A DNA stretch of 32,716 nt from Candidatus Saccharimonadales bacterium (GCA_049521895.1 JBEKOJ010000001.1:1-32716); one strand, 5' to 3'. Counted from the first letter of the stretch, positions 4,031-29,161 are shown. Notes: generated from the letters alone by a model not told the origin. Translations and numbers: made by a program.

Positions 4031-4880
4031 AAATACTGGACTGGGCAGGGGGTTTGACGCGCTGTTCCCAAAAGATCTGGATACCACTATCCTTGAGGAA
4101 GACAAACACCGGGTGCAGAAAATTCTTATTCAAGATATTTTTCCCAATTCTGACCAGCCCCGGCGGGAGTTTGACGAGGGGGCACTCGCCGAGCTCACAG
4201 ACTCGGTTAGAAGGCACGGGGTACTTCAGCCGATATTCGTGGTTAGGGCTGGCAAGGGCTATCAAATTGTCGCCGGCGAGCGCCGCTGGCGGGCCGCTAA
4301 AGCCGCCAAGTTAACGCATATGCCGGCGATTGTGCGCAGCCTGAAGGAGCTTGAGCAGATAGAATTCTCATTGATTGAAAATATCCAGAGGGTAGATTTA
4401 TCACCGCTGGAGCAGGCTTTGTCCGTATTTAAATTACAACAGCAATTCAACCTGGGCTTAGAGGAAATTGCCCAAAAAATTGGTAAAGCTCCCAGTACCG
4501 TAAGCAATCTGACTAGATTATTACAGCTACCGGGGCCAGCCCGGGAGGCTCTACGTGGCGGCAAAATCAGTGAAGGCCACGCCAGATCTATCCTGGCACT
4601 TAAGGGCCAGCCCGCTAAACAAGATGAGCTACTTCAATATATTTTAAACAACGGCTGGACCGTACGACAGGCAGAACAATTCGTGGTGGCGGCTAAAAAA
4701 GGCGCTAGTGTCACGCAGGCCAAGAGTCATACAGCTGCCCGGACTGCCCTCACCAAGAATCTAAGTAAACAATTGGGGACAGATGTCAAAATTAAGCACA
4801 CAGCCCATGGTGGACAACTAATTATTGCATTTGACTCAGAAGACCACTTGCAACAAATTGTTAAGAAACTCAAAGCCTAG
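4023..4880 (+). CDS. parB: ParB/Spo0J partition protein
   Basis: Contains the ParB box GERRWRAAK and an HTH region (IAQKIGKAPSTVSNLTRLL). Translationally coupled to parA. Confidence 0.93.
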   Translation: MAKNTGLGRGFDALFPKDLDTTILEEDKHRVQKILIQDIFPNSDQPRREFDEGALAELTDSVRRHGVLQPIFVVRAGKGYQIVAGERRWRAAKAAKLTHMPAIVRSLKELEQIEFSLIENIQRVDLSPLEQALSVFKLQQQFNLGLEEIAQKIGKAPSTVSNLTRLLQLPGPAREALRGGKISEGHARSILALKGQPAKQDELLQYILNNGWTVRQAEQFVVAAKKGASVTQAKSHTAARTALTKNLSKQLGTDVKIKHTAHGGQLIIAFDSEDHLQQIVKKLKA

Positions 4881-5749: not shown

Positions 5750-7459
5750 ATGACCAAACCAAAGAAGTTTAGAAGACCGAAGCACAGCCCGGCCAGCATA
5801 GATGGTGTGATAGTGGGTAGCCGCGGCTTAGGCACACAAACCGTCGGTTCTTATCAGCCTAAACGAGGACAACAGATGCCCTCTATAGGTGATACTATGC
5901 GTCGTAGTGATGGCTTCCATGCTAGTCGCCAATCGCCCGACAGCTTGGGCCACGGGGGAGTCGAGGCGGCTGAAGCCCAGGCATTACTAGATGAGCCAAT
6001 AATGTTAGACGATGATTCGGGCAAGCAGAAAAAACACTATTTCGGGCACAAGCACCCAAGAGTACGCAGGTATTTCAAGCGCGGCAGTTTGTTGATTCTG
6101 GCATTGATAATTGTAGTCGGTGGCTTTTTGGGCTGGAAACTGGAAAAAGACATAAGTAAAGTTTTTCACGGCAACATTTTCAGCTTTCTTCATCCGGCGG
6201 CCAAGCTAAGGGGTGAAGATCAGGGAAGGGTAACAATCCTGCTAGCCGGTAATTCAGCCGATGACCCGGGCCACGAGGGCGAGAATTTAACAGATTCCAT
6301 TATGCTTGTTAGCTTGGATACAGCCAATAACACTGGGTATTTGCTCAGTATTCCGCGGGACTTCTGGGTAAATTATGGTACCAATAACTGCTCATACGGC
6401 AACCAGGGCAGGATTAACGCTATTTATGAGTGTGGCCAGGCCATTAACTTCCATCAAAATGGCTACCCCAGCGGCGGCATGGGGTTGCTGGTAAAAGATG
6501 TTGACCAATACCTTGGCGTTAACATTGGCTACTACGCGCTAATTGATTATTCCGGCTTGCGTGATGCCGTTAATGCCGTTGGCGGCATTGAATTTACAGT
6601 AAATAACCCTAACACATGTTATATTCTGGGCCGGCCCTTTAATGGCCTTTACGATGGCGGCAGGGATTATGTTACTGGAGGGGTACTTGTTAATTTAACC
6701 AACGGCACCCATCTTTTAAACGGCGAACAAGCGCTGGATCTGGCCCGCGCCCGCGGCGACTTTCCATACCTATACCCCAGCTGCGGCTACGAAAATAACG
6801 ATTTTACCCGGACGCAAAACCAGCGGCAAGAACTTCTTTCTTTGAAAAGTAAAATCTTAAGCCTGGGCGTACTGAGCAACCCCGCTAAACTCAGTAGCTT
6901 GCTGGACACTTTCGGTAACAGCGTCCAGACTAACTTCCGAGCCAACGAAATCTTGCGGCTGTACAATCTAAGTAAAAAAATCCCCAACTCGCAGATTCAG
7001 TCCGTTGCCTTGACCGTCACCGGCAACGGGACCAACTACTTAAAGAGCATGAACATTAATGGGGCCGATGTGTTTATACCGGCGGCCGGAGAAGGGAACT
7101 ATTCTGACATCCAATCTTTTATCCAACGGCTTAACAGTAACAATCCTGTCGTTAAAGAAGACGCCAGCGTAGTGATTCTAAATGCCAGCAATATAAACGG
7201 GCTAGCCGCCAAGACCGCGACCACTTTGACCAATGCCGGCATGAACGTGGTGGCTACCGGTGACGATACCGTCCGGTCCACATCAGCAGTAGTAGTCCTA
7301 AATTCACAAAAATCTGCCACTAAGTCCTATCTGCAGAAGACCTTCAAGGTTACCCCTACAACTAACACCGCGGCATTTCCTGAGACTCAAAACTACAACG
7401 CCGATTTTGTTATAATCCTTGGTGAAGATGCCGCGACTTCCAATACCCCGTCACAGTGA
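5750..7459 (+). CDS. LytR-CpsA-Psr (LCP) family cell-envelope phosphotransferase with a LytR_C domain
   Basis: ILLAGNSADD...TDSIMLVSL...SIPRD is the LCP core. A single TM follows a basic N-terminal tail. The start is set at ATG 5750 (MTKPKKF) because the track start at 5642 overlaps the divergent lepB start. Confidence 0.85.
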   Translation: MTKPKKFRRPKHSPASIDGVIVGSRGLGTQTVGSYQPKRGQQMPSIGDTMRRSDGFHASRQSPDSLGHGGVEAAEAQALLDEPIMLDDDSGKQKKHYFGHKHPRVRRYFKRGSLLILALIIVVGGFLGWKLEKDISKVFHGNIFSFLHPAAKLRGEDQGRVTILLAGNSADDPGHEGENLTDSIMLVSLDTANNTGYLLSIPRDFWVNYGTNNCSYGNQGRINAIYECGQAINFHQNGYPSGGMGLLVKDVDQYLGVNIGYYALIDYSGLRDAVNAVGGIEFTVNNPNTCYILGRPFNGLYDGGRDYVTGGVLVNLTNGTHLLNGEQALDLARARGDFPYLYPSCGYENNDFTRTQNQRQELLSLKSKILSLGVLSNPAKLSSLLDTFGNSVQTNFRANEILRLYNLSKKIPNSQIQSVALTVTGNGTNYLKSMNINGADVFIPAAGEGNYSDIQSFIQRLNSNNPVVKEDASVVILNASNINGLAAKTATTLTNAGMNVVATGDDTVRSTSAVVVLNSQKSATKSYLQKTFKVTPTTNTAAFPETQNYNADFVIILGEDAATSNTPSQ

Positions 7460-8222
7460 CCCCGCCAAGATTGGTCCGGGCAAACTAGCCAGACTTAAGC
7501 CGGTGCGTGGTTTTGCGCACTCGGTGCACATCGGCCTCAATGTGCTGCTGCCTATAGCAGCTTATATATTGGTACGCATTGATTTCGTGGGCTTGGCGAT
7601 ACTGCTGATCCTGCTCAGTAAATGGCAGATGTTTGCCGTACGCCCGCGCTATTGGTTTGCCAACCTGGTGGCGAACGGCATTGATATCTTGGTGGCAGTC
7701 TCACTGGTGCTGTTCATGGCTAATACCATGTCTACCTGGTGGCAGCTGCTGTGGATGGTGCTATATATCGGTTGGTTGGTGTGGCTCAAGCCAAGGAGTG
7801 ACGTACTGAGCGTTTCGGGGCAGGCGATGGCAGGCCAATTGCTGGCTTTGGCTGTGCTGTATCTTAAATTCGGCGATTCCTCGCTGCCGGTTCTGGTAGT
7901 AGCTACCTGGGGGGTAGCTTACCTGTCGGCACGCCATTTCTTGACTAGTTTCGAAGAATCGCACACCGCGCTGCTGGCTCACGTCTGGGCCTATTTTGCG
8001 GCCGCGTTAGCTTTTGTGTTAGGACACTGGCTGCTATTTTACGGTTCGGTGGCGCAAATCATCGTTATCTTAACTACTATCGGTTATGGCATGGCGGCGC
8101 TATATTATCTTGACGCCACGGAGCGTTTAAGCCGGCTGATGGAACGCCAGTTGTTACTAATCATGATTGCAATTCTGCTGGTAGTATTCTTTTTATCCGA
8201 TTGGAGCGGCGTCACCGTTTAG
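7419..8222 (+). CDS. Polytopic membrane protein of unknown function
   Basis: Has about 7-8 hydrophobic helices. The start is ambiguous: TTG 7419, GTG 7422 or ATG 7428. A TATAAT box lies at 7411-7416, inside the 3' end of the LCP gene. Confidence 0.7.
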   Translation: MVKMPRLPIPRHSDPAKIGPGKLARLKPVRGFAHSVHIGLNVLLPIAAYILVRIDFVGLAILLILLSKWQMFAVRPRYWFANLVANGIDILVAVSLVLFMANTMSTWWQLLWMVLYIGWLVWLKPRSDVLSVSGQAMAGQLLALAVLYLKFGDSSLPVLVVATWGVAYLSARHFLTSFEESHTALLAHVWAYFAAALAFVLGHWLLFYGSVAQIIVILTTIGYGMAALYYLDATERLSRLMERQLLLIMIAILLVVFFLSDWSGVTV

Positions 8223-8389
8223 GCCGCCACGCCACGCCAGCCTGCCGTCCCCGCCTTGGCAGGGCCGCACCGCTGGCGTTCTTGGCAAATCGCTGTGTTG
8301 CATCCTCTGTTGCTCGTTCAATGTATTCGTACATACATCTCACTCCGCTACTCAGCTGCGCCTAGCGCTTTGCTCAAGCGTGGCGGCCT
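8221..8389 (+). ncRNA. Unclassified structured element, copy A (homolog of 28328-28494)
   Basis: Closing stem 8221-8232/8378-8389. Nested stems 8235-8241/8272-8278 and 8281-8293/8365-8377. Invariant blocks TGTTGCATCCT (8296) and CTGCGCCTAGCGC (8356). The stems covary with copy B. Confidence 0.6.
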
Positions 8390-8443
8390 ATACCAATCTC
8401 GGCGTGCTTCCTAACAAATTGCGATTTTTCAGCTTACATTCAG

Positions 8444-8469: not shown

Positions 8470-9738
8470 ATGGAAGATATCGATGATAAAATCGAGCGCA
8501 TCAACAAAGAGCCGGCAGTAGCTAGATATTCCACGCGGCCGAGTCATCTGCCTAAAACGCCCAACTTCAATTGGCTCCGACGGCCGGTTATTAGTCGCCG
8601 ACGCTTGATATTAACTATCTTGGCACTAGTGATATTTTTAGCCGTGATGGTTGGCGGAGGCTGGATCGGGGCTTACCTTTATGAAAACCATCACAGTATT
8701 GCTAGTACCACTTCAGCGAAACAGCAGTACATCTCCGATGAAAGTGAACTGATTGCCGCTATCGCCAAAAATGTCGGCCAAAGCGTAGTTTCGGTAGATG
8801 CCCAAAGTCAGGTCACTTCTCAGGACATCTTTGGCTTTAACCAAACGCAAAACCAGGAAAGCGCCGGCACCGGTTTTATAATTGACAGTAACGGTACTAT
8901 TGTTACCAACCGCCACGTCGTGCCGGCTGGTACCAGCAGCGTAAGTGTTACCCTGGCTGATGGCACAACTTATAACAACGTCCAAGTTATCGGCCGGACC
9001 GCTGATACCGACCCGTTGGATGTTGCGTTCCTGAAAATCCCAAACCTAAACGGCAAAAAACTCACGCCGGTAACACTTGGTGATTCGTCCCAAATGCAGG
9101 TTGGCGATAGGGTAGTGGCCATTGGTAACGCCCTCGGTCAATTTCAGAATACCGTCACATCTGGCATTATCTCCGGTTACGGCCGCGATGTAACAGCCGG
9201 CGACCAAACAGGCATTGCTTCCGAGAACCTGACTGATTTATTCCAGACCGACGCCGCCATTAACGAAGGTAACTCCGGTGGCCCGCTCGTCAACATCAAC
9301 GGCGAAGTCATCGGCTTAAATACTGCCGTGGCTTCCGGTGCCCAAAACATCGGTTTTGCCATCCCCATTAATGACATCAAAGGCCTGATCAACAGTGTTC
9401 TAAGCAAAGGGCAACTGCAGCAACCGTATCTGGGCGTACGCTATGTGTCGCTTACTAACGACTTGGCCAGCCAGTTTAATCTGAGCATAACCCGTGGAGC
9501 CTACATCGTCTCCGGCGATAACGAACCGGCTGTCATTGCCGGCAGCCCGGCTGACATAGCCGGCCTAAAAGATGGTGACGTTATCACCAAAGTTAACAAT
9601 ATAACTATTGACGATAAAACTAGCCTGACTGGTGCGCTAGCGCAATTTCAAGTAGGCGATAAAGTGAATCTCACGGTTGTTAGAGCTGGCAAAACCATTC
9701 AGCTTACAGCTACACTTGGCAACACCCCCACCGGCTAG
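8470..9738 (+). CDS. htrA: HtrA/DegP-family serine protease with a C-terminal PDZ domain, membrane-anchored
   Basis: Catalytic triad contexts are TNRHVV, LDVAFLK and GNSGGPLVN. A PDZ-like tail and one N-terminal TM are present. ATG 8470 is preferred over TTG 8449. Confidence 0.92.
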   Translation: MEDIDDKIERINKEPAVARYSTRPSHLPKTPNFNWLRRPVISRRRLILTILALVIFLAVMVGGGWIGAYLYENHHSIASTTSAKQQYISDESELIAAIAKNVGQSVVSVDAQSQVTSQDIFGFNQTQNQESAGTGFIIDSNGTIVTNRHVVPAGTSSVSVTLADGTTYNNVQVIGRTADTDPLDVAFLKIPNLNGKKLTPVTLGDSSQMQVGDRVVAIGNALGQFQNTVTSGIISGYGRDVTAGDQTGIASENLTDLFQTDAAINEGNSGGPLVNINGEVIGLNTAVASGAQNIGFAIPINDIKGLINSVLSKGQLQQPYLGVRYVSLTNDLASQFNLSITRGAYIVSGDNEPAVIAGSPADIAGLKDGDVITKVNNITIDDKTSLTGALAQFQVGDKVNLTVVRAGKTIQLTATLGNTPTG

Positions 9739-9950: not shown

Positions 9951-10059
9951 GGGCCGCGAGCACCATACCTAAAAAGTGGGTCAGGCGTAGTGCAACCCGA
10001 GCAACGGTTTAGGTTGCCCGGCGTGAAACGCACACTTTTTAGGTATGGTGCGGGAGGCC
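9951..10059. repeat. Hairpin with a 19-bp perfect inverted repeat around a 54-nt structured loop (C2)
   Basis: GCACCATACCTAAAAAGTG (9960-9978) is the reverse complement of CACTTTTTAGGTATGGTGC (10033-10051). The inner stem is GCAACC/GGTTGC. Confidence 0.6.
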
Positions 10060-10067
10060 AATGAACG

Positions 10068-10089
10068 AATACTTAACTCGTTAAGTATT
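10068..10089. repeat. Palindrome AATACTTAAC-TC-GTTAAGTATT (family copy 1), abutting the prmC stop codon
   Basis: Perfect 10+10 inverted repeat. The same motif occurs at 14894-14917 and 27087-27110. Confidence 0.7.
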
Positions 10090-10091
10090 TA

Positions 10092-10898
10092 TTAAATTGG
10101 TTCGAAAACTTGGATGAAATCTTCGCGGCAATGTTCGTAAAAGCCAGCGCTGGCAGCAATATCTACCAGCTGGGCGTGCTGGGGTGGCATAGATTCGGTC
10201 AACACAAACTGCGGCTTAGAGTGACGTGCAGCTAGTTGCATAAATAGCCGTCGGTAAACTTCCAAGCCGTCGCCACCGCCAAAAATCGCGATCCTGGGCT
10301 CGCAGCTGGCGGCCTTGTTGATATGGTAATAGCTGGGTACATAGGGCAGGTTAGCTAGTATTACGTCGTGAGAGCTAGGGCTAGCGGATAACAGATCGCT
10401 GCAAAACCAGCGCAGTGCGAGTTTGTGACGCCTAACATTTTCCACTGCCACCGCCAAAGCCCTTTGATCGATCTCGAACAAGTCGACAATAGATCGTGGA
10501 ATTTCCAGTGCCGCCGTTATACCAAGTGCGCCGCAACCGGCACCGACATCAGCGATTCGCGGATGGATGGGCAGACTCAAACTCTTAAGCAGGCTAATCA
10601 TAATTTCGGACTCGGGGCGTGGCTGCAAAACCCGTCCGTCAATCTTAAAGCGGCGGCCATAAAACTCGCAAAAACCGCGGATATAACCCAGTGGCTCGTG
10701 TTTTTCACGACGCCGCAACCACTTTTCCAGCTTTTCCAAGGCTGGTCCTTGGAAAGTATATTCCGGGTGAGCCAGAAACCACGTCCGGTCTTTTTTTAGG
10801 CAGTCTTCTAGCATGATAAGTATGTCCAAGCGCGCCGAGCCAATACCAGCTTTTTGTAGCCGGGAAGTGCCGTAAGTTAAGAAAGTCGCGCTGTTCAT
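10092..10898 (-). CDS. prmC: Release-factor glutamine N5-methyltransferase (PrmC/HemK)
   Basis: Has a SAM-binding motif (ADVGAGCGALG) and the NLPY variant of the NPPY motif (ILANLPYVP). Sits downstream of prfA. Its ATGA overlaps the upstream gene. Confidence 0.88.
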   Translation of the reverse strand: MNSATFLTYGTSRLQKAGIGSARLDILIMLEDCLKKDRTWFLAHPEYTFQGPALEKLEKWLRRREKHEPLGYIRGFCEFYGRRFKIDGRVLQPRPESEIMISLLKSLSLPIHPRIADVGAGCGALGITAALEIPRSIVDLFEIDQRALAVAVENVRRHKLALRWFCSDLLSASPSSHDVILANLPYVPSYYHINKAASCEPRIAIFGGGDGLEVYRRLFMQLAARHSKPQFVLTESMPPQHAQLVDIAASAGFYEHCREDFIQVFEPI

Positions 10899-14893: not shown

Positions 14894-14921
14894 AAATACT
14901 TAACTTGTTAAGTATTTTTTT
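14894..14921 (+). terminator. Palindrome AAATACTTAAC-TT-GTTAAGTATTT followed by a T-run (family copy 2); putative tsf terminator
   Basis: The inverted repeat spans 14894-14917 and is followed by TTTT. The stem is AU-rich, so it may instead be a protein-binding site. Confidence 0.5.
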
Positions 14922-15081
14922 ATGGGGGTTAAGTATTTTCCAAGGTGTAAAAAACCCCGCACTAATAACTTGATGTTGCGAAATAGGTTTATCCAACTTC
15001 TTCTTGACTCTAGTTTTAGTACGGGGTACGACGGCGATGCAGGCTGCGAACAAAATGCTACAAGCAGTCTACGTGCCGCTA

Positions 15082-27086: not shown

Positions 27087-27110
27087 AATTACTTAACCTG
27101 TTAAGTAATT
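27087..27110. repeat. Palindrome AATTACTTAAC-CT-GTTAAGTAATT (family copy 3) between convergent genes
   Basis: Perfect 11+11 inverted repeat ending one base before the stop codon of the minus-strand gene (27111). Confidence 0.7.
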
Positions 27111-28037
27111 TTATAAGAAAGCCTGGACGGTAGCGCTAGTAATCGATGCAAAAATCTGGTGGCCTTCGGCATCATCATAATCGCCGTCATTATCCATCTT
27201 GGTAAAAATCACCAGCACGTAAGGGTGTTTGCCGTTGTCGATGATAGCGGCGTCGTGTACCCGGTCGTCTAAAAAACCGATTTTATGGTATACCTTGACG
27301 CCTTTGGGCACCGAGGCCACGATGTAGTTATCGTAGTTGGCATCGTGCATATAGTTCATCAACAGCTGGGTGTCGGCAGAGTTTAGTAGCTCGCCTTTGT
27401 AGAGTTTAGCTAAAAGCAGCGATATGTCATCAACTGTCAAGGTGTTTTGGCTAGGATCGTAATTGATAAGCCCGATTTCTTGGGCATAATTCGACAGGGC
27501 GTCGTTGGTCAACAAGTTGTTTAGATTGATCCAAGCGGTGTCATCGCTGATTTCAATAAGTTGCTGCAGCTCATATTGTGCGCTGGAGCCATCAATGTCT
27601 TCGTTGAGGGTTTGCTGTCCAAGCTCCACTTCGTGTAAAAAGAGGCTGGCGGTCAACACCTTGGAGATACTGGCAGCTATAAAAGCCTGGCCGATGCCAT
27701 AGTGGTAGGATTTATGATTATTTAGGTCCACTATAGCTACGCCCACTTCCATATCCTGGTAACTACTGATCACATCGTTAATCTGGCTGGACATTAGCGA
27801 CGTTTGGGCAGCGGTTAGAGTTGGCTTGCTGACGGCCTCAACCTTGCTGAATTTTGCCTTACCCAAGTTAAACGGCAGGTTGGACAGCCGCGTGTAGTGG
27901 TAGCCAAGCATTATAAGCAGTACCAACAAGGGGAATCCCAGCAGCCACTTGATAGATATTTTGCCGGATTTCTTGCTTGAATCCTTGGGCGGTAGCCTGC
28001 TAGAGCGATAATAATTATTGAGGCCGTGACTTTGCAT
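27111..28037 (-). CDS. Class A beta-lactamase-like serine hydrolase, membrane-anchored
   Basis: Has an S-x-x-K motif (ASISK), an SDN-like motif (ISDD) and a KTG-like motif (HKIG). One N-terminal TM. Confidence 0.75.
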   Translation of the reverse strand: MQSHGLNNYYRSSRLPPKDSSKKSGKISIKWLLGFPLLVLLIMLGYHYTRLSNLPFNLGKAKFSKVEAVSKPTLTAAQTSLMSSQINDVISSYQDMEVGVAIVDLNNHKSYHYGIGQAFIAASISKVLTASLFLHEVELGQQTLNEDIDGSSAQYELQQLIEISDDTAWINLNNLLTNDALSNYAQEIGLINYDPSQNTLTVDDISLLLAKLYKGELLNSADTQLLMNYMHDANYDNYIVASVPKGVKVYHKIGFLDDRVHDAAIIDNGKHPYVLVIFTKMDNDGDYDDAEGHQIFASITSATVQAFL

Positions 28038-28179: not shown

Positions 28180-28208
28180 TTGACAATATGGCCGCAGAAG
28201 CATATATT
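28180..28208 (+). promoter_or_regulatory. Near-consensus sigma70-type promoter TTGACA-N17-TATATT with no ORF behind it
   Basis: -35 at 28180-28185 and -10 at 28203-28208. Confidence 0.65.
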
Positions 28209-28214
28209 AAGACT

Positions 28215-28327
28215 TAGTCATCGTGAGGTGACCACGATAATCTCAGCAATGGAATTATCGTACGGTAATAAACCCTCGGGCGAGTTATCGTCCAAAAAAG
28301 AGACCCTCGTGGCCTCTTTTTTGTTTT
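28215..28327 (+). ncRNA. Candidate ~110-nt sRNA or attenuator leader ending in an A-tract/hairpin/T-tract
   Basis: Hairpins are ATCGTG/CACGAT, CGATAAT/ATTATCG and ATTATC-GTAC-GGTAAT. TTATCGT and ACCCTCG are each duplicated, allowing alternative pairings. The terminator-like hairpin pairs 28294-28305 with 28311-28322 and runs into a T-tract. Confidence 0.5.
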
Positions 28328-28494
28328 CTGAGCTTTCCGCCGCGCTGGCCTGCCTTCTGGCAGAGCCAGAAGCTCCGCCAGCACTCTTGTCGCAGCGCGT
28401 TGTTGCATCCTGCGGTCCGCGCTCACCGTATTACATATACGGCTAGCTTGCGTTCCTCGTCTGCGCCTAGCGCTGCACAAGCGGAAAAACTCAG
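28328..28494 (+). ncRNA. Unclassified structured element, copy B (homolog of 8221-8389)
   Basis: Closing stem 28328-28340/28481-28494. Nested stems 28344-49/28377-82 and 28386-98/28470-81. TGTTGCATCCT lies at 28401 and CTGCGCCTAGCGC at 28461. Confidence 0.6.
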
Positions 28495-28541
28495 AAGTTT
28501 GCGCGAGATGACACTTTTTATTAAGTATAATTAGGTGGATC

Positions 28542-28931
28542 ATGGTAGAAATCAACGATAAAGAGTTTGAGGAAATTATTAGCCAGGGAATAGCGGCCAT
28601 CCCAAACTTGTATCAAAAACATCTGCAGAATGTGGCTTTCTTGGTAGAGGACGATCCCACACCTCAGCAGCGCGTGAAACTCAATCTCTACCCACACGAG
28701 ACGTTATTCGGCTTATACGAAGGTGTGCCATTGCCACAGAGGGGCGGCGGCACCAAACTGTTGCCAGATAAAATAACTATCTTTAAAAACCCACTGCAAA
28801 ATGCTAGCCGTAATCTAGCTGAGTTAAAAGAAAACGTCCGCCACACAATCTGGCACGAGGTTGCCCATTACTATGGTTTGGATCATAAAAGGATCCACGA
28901 ATTGGAAGGTACTGACAGATCCTCGGGATGA
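28542..28931 (+). CDS. Zincin-like metallopeptidase-family protein (HExxH); C-terminus altered by a 135-bp duplication or insertion
   Basis: WHEVAHYYGL is the HExxH motif in a small ~130-aa protein, resembling the Zincin_1/DUF1025-type family (from memory). The -10 TATAAT is at 28526-28531. Confidence 0.75.
   Translation: MVEINDKEFEEIISQGIAAIPNLYQKHLQNVAFLVEDDPTPQQRVKLNLYPHETLFGLYEGVPLPQRGGGTKLLPDKITIFKNPLQNASRNLAELKENVRHTIWHEVAHYYGLDHKRIHELEGTDRSSG
28877..28906 (+). repeat. 30-bp perfect direct repeat, copy 1 (inside the 3' end of the metallopeptidase gene)
   Basis: TTTGGATCATAAAAGGATCCACGAATTGGA is identical to 29012-29041. Confidence 0.9.
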
Positions 28932-29011
28932 GCAGCCCGAGCGTCGGATTTATTCCGCGCCCGGTGCGATGAGAAACCCCGAAGGGGTGTCTCATAAGGC
29001 GAAGCCGCTGT

Positions 29012-29041
29012 TTTGGATCATAAAAGGATCCACGAATTGGA
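29012..29041 (+). repeat. 30-bp perfect direct repeat, copy 2
   Basis: Identical to 28877-28906, with a 135-bp period. Confidence 0.9.
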
Positions 29042-29104
29042 TAGACCGCCAAAAAATCCAGGCAACTAGAATTGCTACCAGCGCAAATTCCTGTGGACAA
29101 AAGC

Positions 29105-29133
29105 TTGAAAAGTTGCTGAAGCAAGCATATGAT
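29105..29133 (+). promoter_or_regulatory. Promoter TTGAAA-N17-TATGAT for the YggT-like gene
   Basis: -35 at 29105-29110 and -10 at 29128-29133. SD AAGGAGG at 29151-29157. Confidence 0.55.
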
Positions 29134-29161
29134 AGGTTTATTAATAACTTAAGGAGGAAAC

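Follow-up and report, generated by a model that had tools for sequence, protein, structure and literature searches.

Several kinds of small hairpin-forming repeat have been described in bacteria, and three of them resemble an element found twice in a 32,716-nt stretch of a Candidatus Saccharimonadales genome (the window, which an exact-protein look-up places at positions 1-32716 of a 770-kb metagenome contig from peat, JGI 3300038418, Ga0427942_000004). REP sequences and REPINs are hairpin repeats mobilised by RAYT (Y1) transposases (PMC3116915, PMC3337134). The two copies in the window, A and B, and their relatives in other genomes are likewise short, non-coding, mostly extragenic hairpin repeats, which occur as inverted doublets in two loci (L025 and L031) and have a strand-specific single-strand structure (PMC3116915, PMC3337134). 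Long persistence in a lineage is possible in both cases, and mobilisation in trans by an enzyme encoded elsewhere, which we infer for the present element, would be a further likeness. There are also multiple distinguishing features. First, the unit is about 80-100 nt long with a conserved asymmetric internal loop, whereas a REP has 20-40 nt. Second, no REP-type short (20-40 nt) palindrome with a 5′ GTAG was found and there is no family-wide 5′ GTAG: this motif is present only in proteobacterial termini (CAGTAGTCC) and not in A or B. Third, the core is common to several phyla, whereas REP classes are lineage-specific. Fourth, two copies lie inside genes, and A and B are single three-way junctions, not doublets. 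Finally, no RAYT is linked to the element in the flanks read (up to 20 kb).

Bacterial MITEs such as Correia/NEMIS, ERIC and QMITE (reviewed in PMC10969869) resemble the element in their length of about 100-200 nt, in having no coding capacity of their own, in their stable stem-loop transcripts (predicted here) and in inserting between and occasionally within genes; in a proteobacterial subfamily, moreover, the copies have terminal inverted repeats in common, and a CTAG may be duplicated. Unlike MITEs, the Saccharibacteria copies combine unrelated termini (the closing stem, P1) with a conserved centre, no target duplication is visible at A or B, and no parent insertion sequence is known for the element. 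Rickettsia palindromic elements (RPE) insert in frame into genes (PMC10969869), as do two of the proteobacterial copies (L026 and L030), a likeness drawn from the published description (PMC10969869); the host range is different, however, and most copies of the present element are intergenic. The element is thus distinguished from REPINs, MITEs and RPE by a central conserved module in the P3 hairpin, by closing stems specific to a lineage or copy and by a core shared across phyla, and because of these differences it is not placed in any named family.

Copies A and B and their fold

The window holds only housekeeping genes (parAB, lytR, htrA, prmC, and ribosomal and tRNA-synthetase genes), with no transposase, integrase or reverse transcriptase among them. 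Homologues of its HtrA protein are named Candidatus Saccharimonadales or Saccharibacteria. The gene neighbours of the two copies encode a membrane protein and HtrA, a beta-lactamase-like protein and a Zincin_1 protein: copy A separates the stop codon of the membrane-protein gene (7419-8222) from the conserved htrA promoter, and copy B separates a bidirectional terminator from the promoter of the Zincin_1 gene. An earlier note on this DNA had reported both; the better-folding strand of each is the minus strand of the window. Their parts are as follows (MFE, minimum free energy; R1 and R2, covariance models defined below).

8217-8393, minus strand: copy A, whole element, a three-way junction (minus-strand RNA MFE -92 kcal/mol; R1/R2 models 101.6/88.9 bits)
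8217-8232, minus strand: P1 arm of copy A, including the host GTT-TAG, last codon and stop (inverted repeat, 16 nt, 94% complementary; C-terminus compared with relatives)
8378-8393, minus strand: partner arm of copy A P1, pairing with 8217-8232
8234-8279, minus strand: accessory hairpin P2 of copy A, CGCCAGC.../...GCTGGCG around CTGCC..GGCAG (from the fold; residual homology to P2 of B, L040 and L019)
8283-8376, minus strand: P3 of copy A, long irregular hairpin with the conserved core (fold and alignment)
8296-8306, minus strand: conserved block 1 of copy A, TGTTGCATCCT on the plus and AGGAUGCAACA on the minus strand (exact match)
8356-8368, minus strand: conserved block 2 of copy A, CTGCGCCTAGCGC on the plus and GCGCUAGGCGCAG on the minus strand (exact match)
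28326-28496, minus strand: copy B, whole element (R1/R2 models 93.7/84.6 bits; identical in sister strains)
28327-28341, minus strand: P1 arm of copy B, pairing with 28480-28495
28480-28495, minus strand: partner arm of copy B P1, pairing with 28327-28341
28342-28384, minus strand: accessory hairpin P2 of copy B (fold)
28388-28479, minus strand: P3 of copy B, long irregular hairpin with the conserved core (fold and alignment)
28401-28411, minus strand: conserved block 1 of copy B (exact match)
28461-28473, minus strand: conserved block 2 of copy B (exact match)
28290-28323, both strands: bidirectional intrinsic terminator beside copy B, with A-tract, GC hairpin and T-tract (inverted repeat; kept in L040 and L042)

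Each copy folds on its own into the P1-P2-P3 three-way junction, and none of 200 shuffles folds as well. The fold is stronger on the minus strand, with z-scores (200 shuffles) of -7.7 for A and -6.3 for B compared with -4.6 and -5.0 on the plus strand, and MFEs of -89.9 versus -74.1 kcal/mol (A) and -88.5 versus -76.4 kcal/mol (B). The earlier note had read the two copies as one architecture, and in this it was correct: the P1 sequences are unrelated between A and B yet complementary in both, the outer stem of P2 is strand-swapped between them, and P3 has a CTTG...CAAG base with compensated inner positions. It had also located the elements rightly at about 170 nt, but P1 of copy A is longer than it had supposed, at 16 bp (8217-8232/8378-8393, one mismatch). 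The outermost P1 pairs take in host bases at A, B and L017, as if the stem had grown outward into the flanking host sequence. Overall identity between A and B is 60-78%, varying with the alignment. Block 1 (TGTTGCATCCT) is exact at 8296 and 28401 and block 2 (CTGCGCCTAGCGC) at 8356 and 28461, neither occurs elsewhere in the window, and they are 60 nt apart in both copies. The blocks had been called invariant, which is true of A and B and not of the whole family: L040 and the doublet partners carry changed versions, and the helix formed between the two blocks has changed in a compensatory way.

No match to Rfam 15, whose families include riboswitches, 6S, SRP and RNase P RNAs, ribozymes, HEARO/omega RNAs and STAXI, was obtained at the gathering threshold for the window and eight related loci, in agreement with the view that this is no known RNA family or riboswitch; with E up to 10 there were chance-level matches only (His_leader, 13 bits; snoRNAs, 12-14 bits). 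Nor is it a tRNA or tmRNA, which the earlier note had not recognised in it either: ARAGORN found no genes in the window. BLAST of copy A and of a proteobacterial copy against plasmids, phages and E. coli genomes gave no match, and four pattern scans of a viral collection gave nothing, or one false match inside a gene (L024). In the literature the block sequences appear in no relevant paper, and nothing relevant was found on MITEs in Saccharibacteria.

Several classes of element were considered and rejected. A retron ncRNA (msr-msd) would have an adjacent reverse-transcriptase gene, and there is none at A or B. For an IS110 bridge RNA or an IS200/IS605 omega/reRNA, no DEDD recombinase and no TnpB, IscB or TnpA lies beside any copy, and there is no Rfam match. 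An integron attC site was set aside by inspection: at the foot of the stems in A and B there are no R″/R′ sites (RYYYAAC ... GTTRRRY), conservation is central and the neighbours are housekeeping genes. A cis-regulatory leader or riboswitch would keep one orientation in the 5′ UTR of its gene, but copies occur both ways round; A and B precede the conserved promoters of plus-strand genes, and their better-folding strand is antisense to these genes. A sigma-54 promoter has a GG-GC spacing of 10, and here it is 14. The element also contains ATCCTG, which may resemble an oriT nick-site.

A dispersed family with a covarying core

The large collections were searched with exact patterns, and two covariance models were used: R1, on the P3 domain, and R2, a second model from ten copies. 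The two-block pattern had 11 matches in metagenomes, three of which are true relatives: L019, in front of polA, with the same P1/P3/P2 junction as A and B; L017, with P1 and P3 only; and L013, a shorter variant. The first pattern applied to the genome collection required the ending ...TAGCGC and had no match. A relaxed pattern had nine in species-representative genomes, and in five of these the match is part of a long hairpin in which the two blocks stand opposite one another on the two sides of the stem: L026 (Gammaproteobacteria), L030 (Sulfuricella), L032 (Hydrogenophilales), L031 (a betaproteobacterium) and L025 (an Eremiobacterota MAG). The remaining matches (eight in metagenomes, four in the genome collection) are chance, with no hairpin context and low model scores. 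R2 reached diverged copies beyond the patterns, namely L040 (65.5 bits) and inverted partners in L031 and L025. Three contigs with copies are Saccharibacteria-like (L017, L019 and L040).

The earlier note had proposed a covariance-model search for more homologs, and it is this search that settles how A and B are related: models of the P3 domain recover copies in other organisms, so the similarity of A and B is homology and not chance. R1 scores of the loci outside Saccharibacteria are 35-40 bits, and since these loci were chosen by 20 exact bases neither the scores nor the E-values are independent; their homology follows from the hairpin context (missing in the chance matches), the extra bases GGCTAGG... 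and ...GCAACGA, and the CCGTAT..ATACGG hairpin. Copies stand in both orientations relative to host genes. Two loci have inverted adjacent doublets (L031, 236-314 on the plus and 342-445 on the minus strand; L025, 4405-4483 on the plus and 4511-4592 on the minus strand), and L025 has 3-4 copies within 8 kb. With the models, no further copy appeared beyond A and B in the 32-kb window, and none in about 100 kb from relatives. The family is one of dispersed, uncatalogued hairpin-forming repeats of about 80-190 nt, sporadic in Saccharibacteria and unrelated phyla.

On the model strand the core of P3 is a purine-rich internal-loop module, GC-UAGGC-GCA ... UGC-AACANN-GC, and P3 is usually capped by a terminal hairpin, CCGUAU..AUACGG. 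The closing stems (P1, plus the side hairpin P2 in some copies) are lineage-specific. Covariation, which the earlier note had suggested testing, is strong: in the ten-copy alignment, which leans towards the model structure because it was fitted to it, 91.6% of cells are paired compared with 24-41% when the partners are slid by 1-3 columns, both sides have changed in 17 of 29 pairs, and none of 500 shuffles reaches the observed values. A separate MAFFT and RNAalifold run on four copies returned the same helices with 12 compensated pairs. Pairing of the stems is thus kept despite sequence identity of about 55-60%. The 3-bp helix GCA/UGC is GCG/CGC in L031 and AGAAAC/GUUUCU in L040, altered on both sides, and therefore covaries too.

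The strands are not equivalent. G-U cells outnumber A-C cells 19:3 on the model strand, where there are also 11 G-A/A-G cells. The MFE is lower on the model strand in eight of ten copies and about equal in the other two (some 6-7 independent cases, because the three proteobacterial copies are not independent), and it is lower on that strand in L040 as well. With DNA parameters P1, P2 and the base of P3 persist and the irregular core has no stable prediction; that the core folds with RNA parameters would lean slightly to RNA. A K-turn reading (GCA-NNN-GA / GA-UGC) would suit most copies; for the proteobacterial ones, which it does not suit, a tandem G-A loop fits instead.

These properties raise the main alternative, that of a structured RNA gene family useful to the host, in which a discrete minus-strand RNA of about 170-230 nt binds a protein or makes a tertiary contact through the P3 loop and copies arise by duplication or horizontal transfer. 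We regard it as possible, though doubtful. The strong covariation, the one-sided G-U asymmetry and a core that folds with RNA and not with DNA parameters speak for it, and purine-rich internal loops with G-A cells are typical of RNA motifs. On the minus strand copy B is preceded by a TATACT box resembling a -10 element and followed by a canonical intrinsic terminator (28290-28323), which would, judging from its sequence, provide an end point for a copy-B transcript; the model strand of L019 lies behind a TATAAT box, as a polA leader. The -10-like boxes are, however, the neighbouring genes' own TATAAT read in reverse, no terminator follows copy A, and no promoter consistently precedes the copies. 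The distribution of the element, to which we turn now, bears on the same question from both sides.

Occupied sites, empty sites and insertions within genes

Both sites in the window show presence/absence polymorphism. At site A relatives keep the htrA promoter (tttcagctt...ttcagtataat). In L009, whose HtrA is 77% identical, the site is empty, with a 48-nt spacer, and in L007, L034 and L012 it holds unrelated sequence. These fillers are themselves long hairpins (L007 8312-8445, L034 2117-2236 and L012 9836-9955, orthologous to window 8223-8425), and all fold better on the minus strand (e.g., -41.4 versus -27.2 kcal/mol in L034). Either site A is a hotspot for oriented palindromic insertions or any hairpin on the antisense strand is selected there.

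Site B is occupied in the sister strains L036, L037 and L039, where it is essentially identical (there is one SNP among them, uninformative on copy B), and also in L040, from another species; L040 and L009, with its empty site A, are from one genome. In L042 the Zincin_1 promoter comes immediately after the terminator, which leaves site B empty there. Copies B and L040 have the same orientation and architecture and are about 57% identical, no closer than any other pair; at this identity shared ancestry and repeated insertion at site B are indistinguishable. Occupancy in two species could reflect long vertical retention under selection, that is, a host function, and a site filled in a second species with the same architecture suits the structured-RNA alternative as well. 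That alternative is harder to square with close relatives lacking the element at site A and L042 lacking it at site B.

The fillers at site A bring in another explanation: a locally selected cis-acting hairpin (insulator, terminator, stabiliser or regulator, as DNA or RNA), a role in which any long hairpin might serve and which might be tied to peptidase genes. We think this quite improbable. It would account for the unrelated long hairpins in relatives, which also fold better on the minus strand, and for the position of A and L017 directly at the stop of the gene upstream, with host bases included in P1. Peptidase genes on the other strand adjoin three of the four distinct Saccharibacteria-type sites (HtrA, 8470-9738; Zincin_1, 28542-28931; an S24/S26-like gene, L017 462-761), numbers too small to judge a bias, and none is found among the proteobacterial copies. 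A core conserved across phyla is not explained by "any hairpin", however, and there is none at site A in L009 or at site B in L042. At A, L017, L031 and L032 the strand that folds better runs antisense to the neighbouring genes, P1 of copy A is followed by no U-tract, and A and B stand upstream of the conserved htrA and Zincin_1 promoters and therefore outside the leaders of these genes.

Some further features of the window lie near the two copies. Immediately upstream of copy B is a small transcription unit (28180-28323) with a near-consensus promoter (TTGACA-17 nt-TATATT), about 100 nt with three hairpins, and the bidirectional terminator. L040 and L042 have the unit too: its middle hairpin shows compensatory changes, GUCAUCGUGAGGUGA, CAGCAAUG and CCUUCGGGCGAGUUAUC are invariant, and there is no Rfam match. 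The 3′ end of the Zincin_1 gene region contains a direct duplication of 135 bp (28874-29143, units starting at 28874 and 29009), with 97% identity over the 33-nt repeat found; the sister strain L036 has a single unit. Between 26500 and 28000 there are about 90 differences from L036, compared with about 1 per kb elsewhere. This stretch, which spans a 146-aa ORF and the beta-lactamase-like gene, has the look of a patch of recombination and stops just short of the sRNA-like unit and copy B. An AT-rich palindrome, AAATACTTAAC..GTTAAGTATTT, followed by a T-run recurs at gene ends (10067-10095, 14894-14922 and 27087-27115) and probably represents the standard intrinsic terminators of this genome. 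Finally, the 350-nt spacer after htrA contains a near-perfect palindrome of 108 nt (9952-10059; 27-nt arms, 89% complementary); in relatives the spacer is missing or has a NUDIX gene instead. The palindrome's centre, CAGGCGTAG-TGCAAC, is faintly block-like, with an R2 score of just 9.2 bits (E about 2).

The proteobacterial copies L026, L030 and L032 are inserted at unrelated loci in three orders, yet each is exactly 162 nt long and they are 91-96% identical. The copy in L030 (4585-4746) follows codon 12 of flgH, within the lipoprotein signal peptide, and leaves the upstream start, a GGAGG Shine-Dalgarno sequence and ATG, intact; that in L026 (4451-4612) follows codon 3 of a CusS-like sensor kinase and leaves intact the ATGA overlap with the stop of the response regulator. 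Both intragenic copies are in frame and add 54 codons with no stop. The third, in L032, lies in the skp-lpxD spacer in the opposite orientation. All three share termini, AGTAGTCCGTTC.../...GAACGGACTACT, with terminal inverted repeats that are not common to A, B, L019 and L017; L040 and L017 share only a weak GGGTTGAG. A perfect CTAG flanks the L032 copy on both sides; at the corresponding positions L026 and L030 have degenerate versions, and A, B, L017 and L019 show no visible target-site duplication. The inserts in L026 and L030 end in ...GGKRRRFMS(A/S)VW(W/Q)NGLL, so that positively charged residues and an internal ATG immediately precede the hydrophobic signal or transmembrane segment of the host protein, and this charged end may, from the sequence, explain why insertion at the N-terminus is tolerated.

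In-frame copies suggest yet another possibility, namely that the conserved blocks encode a short peptide (...EDAT...), which would make the element either a small gene for a protein or an insert that is translated. The frame through block 1 (GAG GAT GCA AC) is open to the 3′ end in most copies and continues into the reading frames of flgH, the kinase and possibly polA. Even so, we consider this highly improbable: the distance between the blocks is 69, 68, 63, 52, 49 or 73 nt depending on the copy, which shifts their relative frame, so they cannot both be conserved codons. Copy B lacks a start codon and is directly preceded by a stop, stem substitutions are compensatory and not synonymous, and a protein search with the 54-aa insert gave no match.

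A proposed mobile hairpin

The reading that we favour, with about even confidence, is that A, B and their relatives are a non-autonomous mobile hairpin element similar to REPINs, MITEs and RPE, whose conserved part is central and not terminal. It is based on sporadic occupancy, unrelated insertion sites, both orientations, in-frame copies within genes, doublets and clustering, and the lack of a nearby mobility gene. Copies that are sporadic, cross phyla and sometimes sit inside genes resemble small mobile "selfish" DNA more closely than a gene for a housekeeping RNA, and near-identical proteobacterial copies within coding regions and in both orientations are likewise unlike a host RNA gene. 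No transposase gene was present in any locus read (flanks of up to 20 kb), and since neither A and B nor their relatives have a neighbouring mobility gene, the element would be non-autonomous. Mobility within the Saccharibacteria genome itself we infer.

This conclusion departs from the earlier note, which had proposed a functional RNA or a structured DNA site and argued against a MITE on the grounds that the termini of a MITE would match. The element is structured and its stems do show compensatory changes, but the exclusion is not supported: insertions are dispersed and absent from orthologous sites in close relatives, and copies 91-96% identical occupy unrelated loci, twice within genes. 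The proteobacterial copies do share termini, only the Saccharibacteria copies have unrelated P1 arms, and there are both orientations and inverted doublets.

As for mechanism, a folded single strand could be copied to new sites by an enzyme encoded elsewhere, both the single-strand intermediate and the nature of the enzyme being conjectural. This trans-acting enzyme would recognise the central P3 core rather than the termini, and complementarity of the stems could be preserved through compensatory substitution or template-directed correction of quasi-palindromes. Several observations count against the mobile reading. The P1 arms of the Saccharibacteria copies are unrelated, whereas a classical MITE has conserved TIRs; no target-site duplication is visible at A or B; only two copies are seen in 32 kb and there is no candidate transposase in the loci read; and the irregular core is convincing with RNA parameters only and not with DNA parameters.

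A bolder proposal, which we hold to be unlikely, is that the central module defines a new class of mobile nucleic acid and is its functional unit: an RNA or ssDNA core, protein-binding or catalytic, that crosses phyla including the CPR, gains a closing stem of any sequence and tolerates or exploits insertion at the 5′ ends of genes. Such a system, whether for transposition or for RNA processing, would recognise its substrate by the centre and not by the ends.

Saccharibacteria and other CPR bacteria have very small, densely packed genomes, and dispersed repeat families are not a feature for which they are known. A hairpin element common to Saccharibacteria, Proteobacteria and Eremiobacterota would be a new marker of horizontal traffic into CPR lineages. 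It is an unusual palindromic element in that its centre is conserved and its ends are not, and depending on which strand and molecule are active it could lead to a new single-strand transposition system or to a new protein-binding RNA motif. Gene remodelling by palindromic elements, as in Rickettsia, gains a second example from the in-frame insertions into a signal peptide and a kinase N-terminus.
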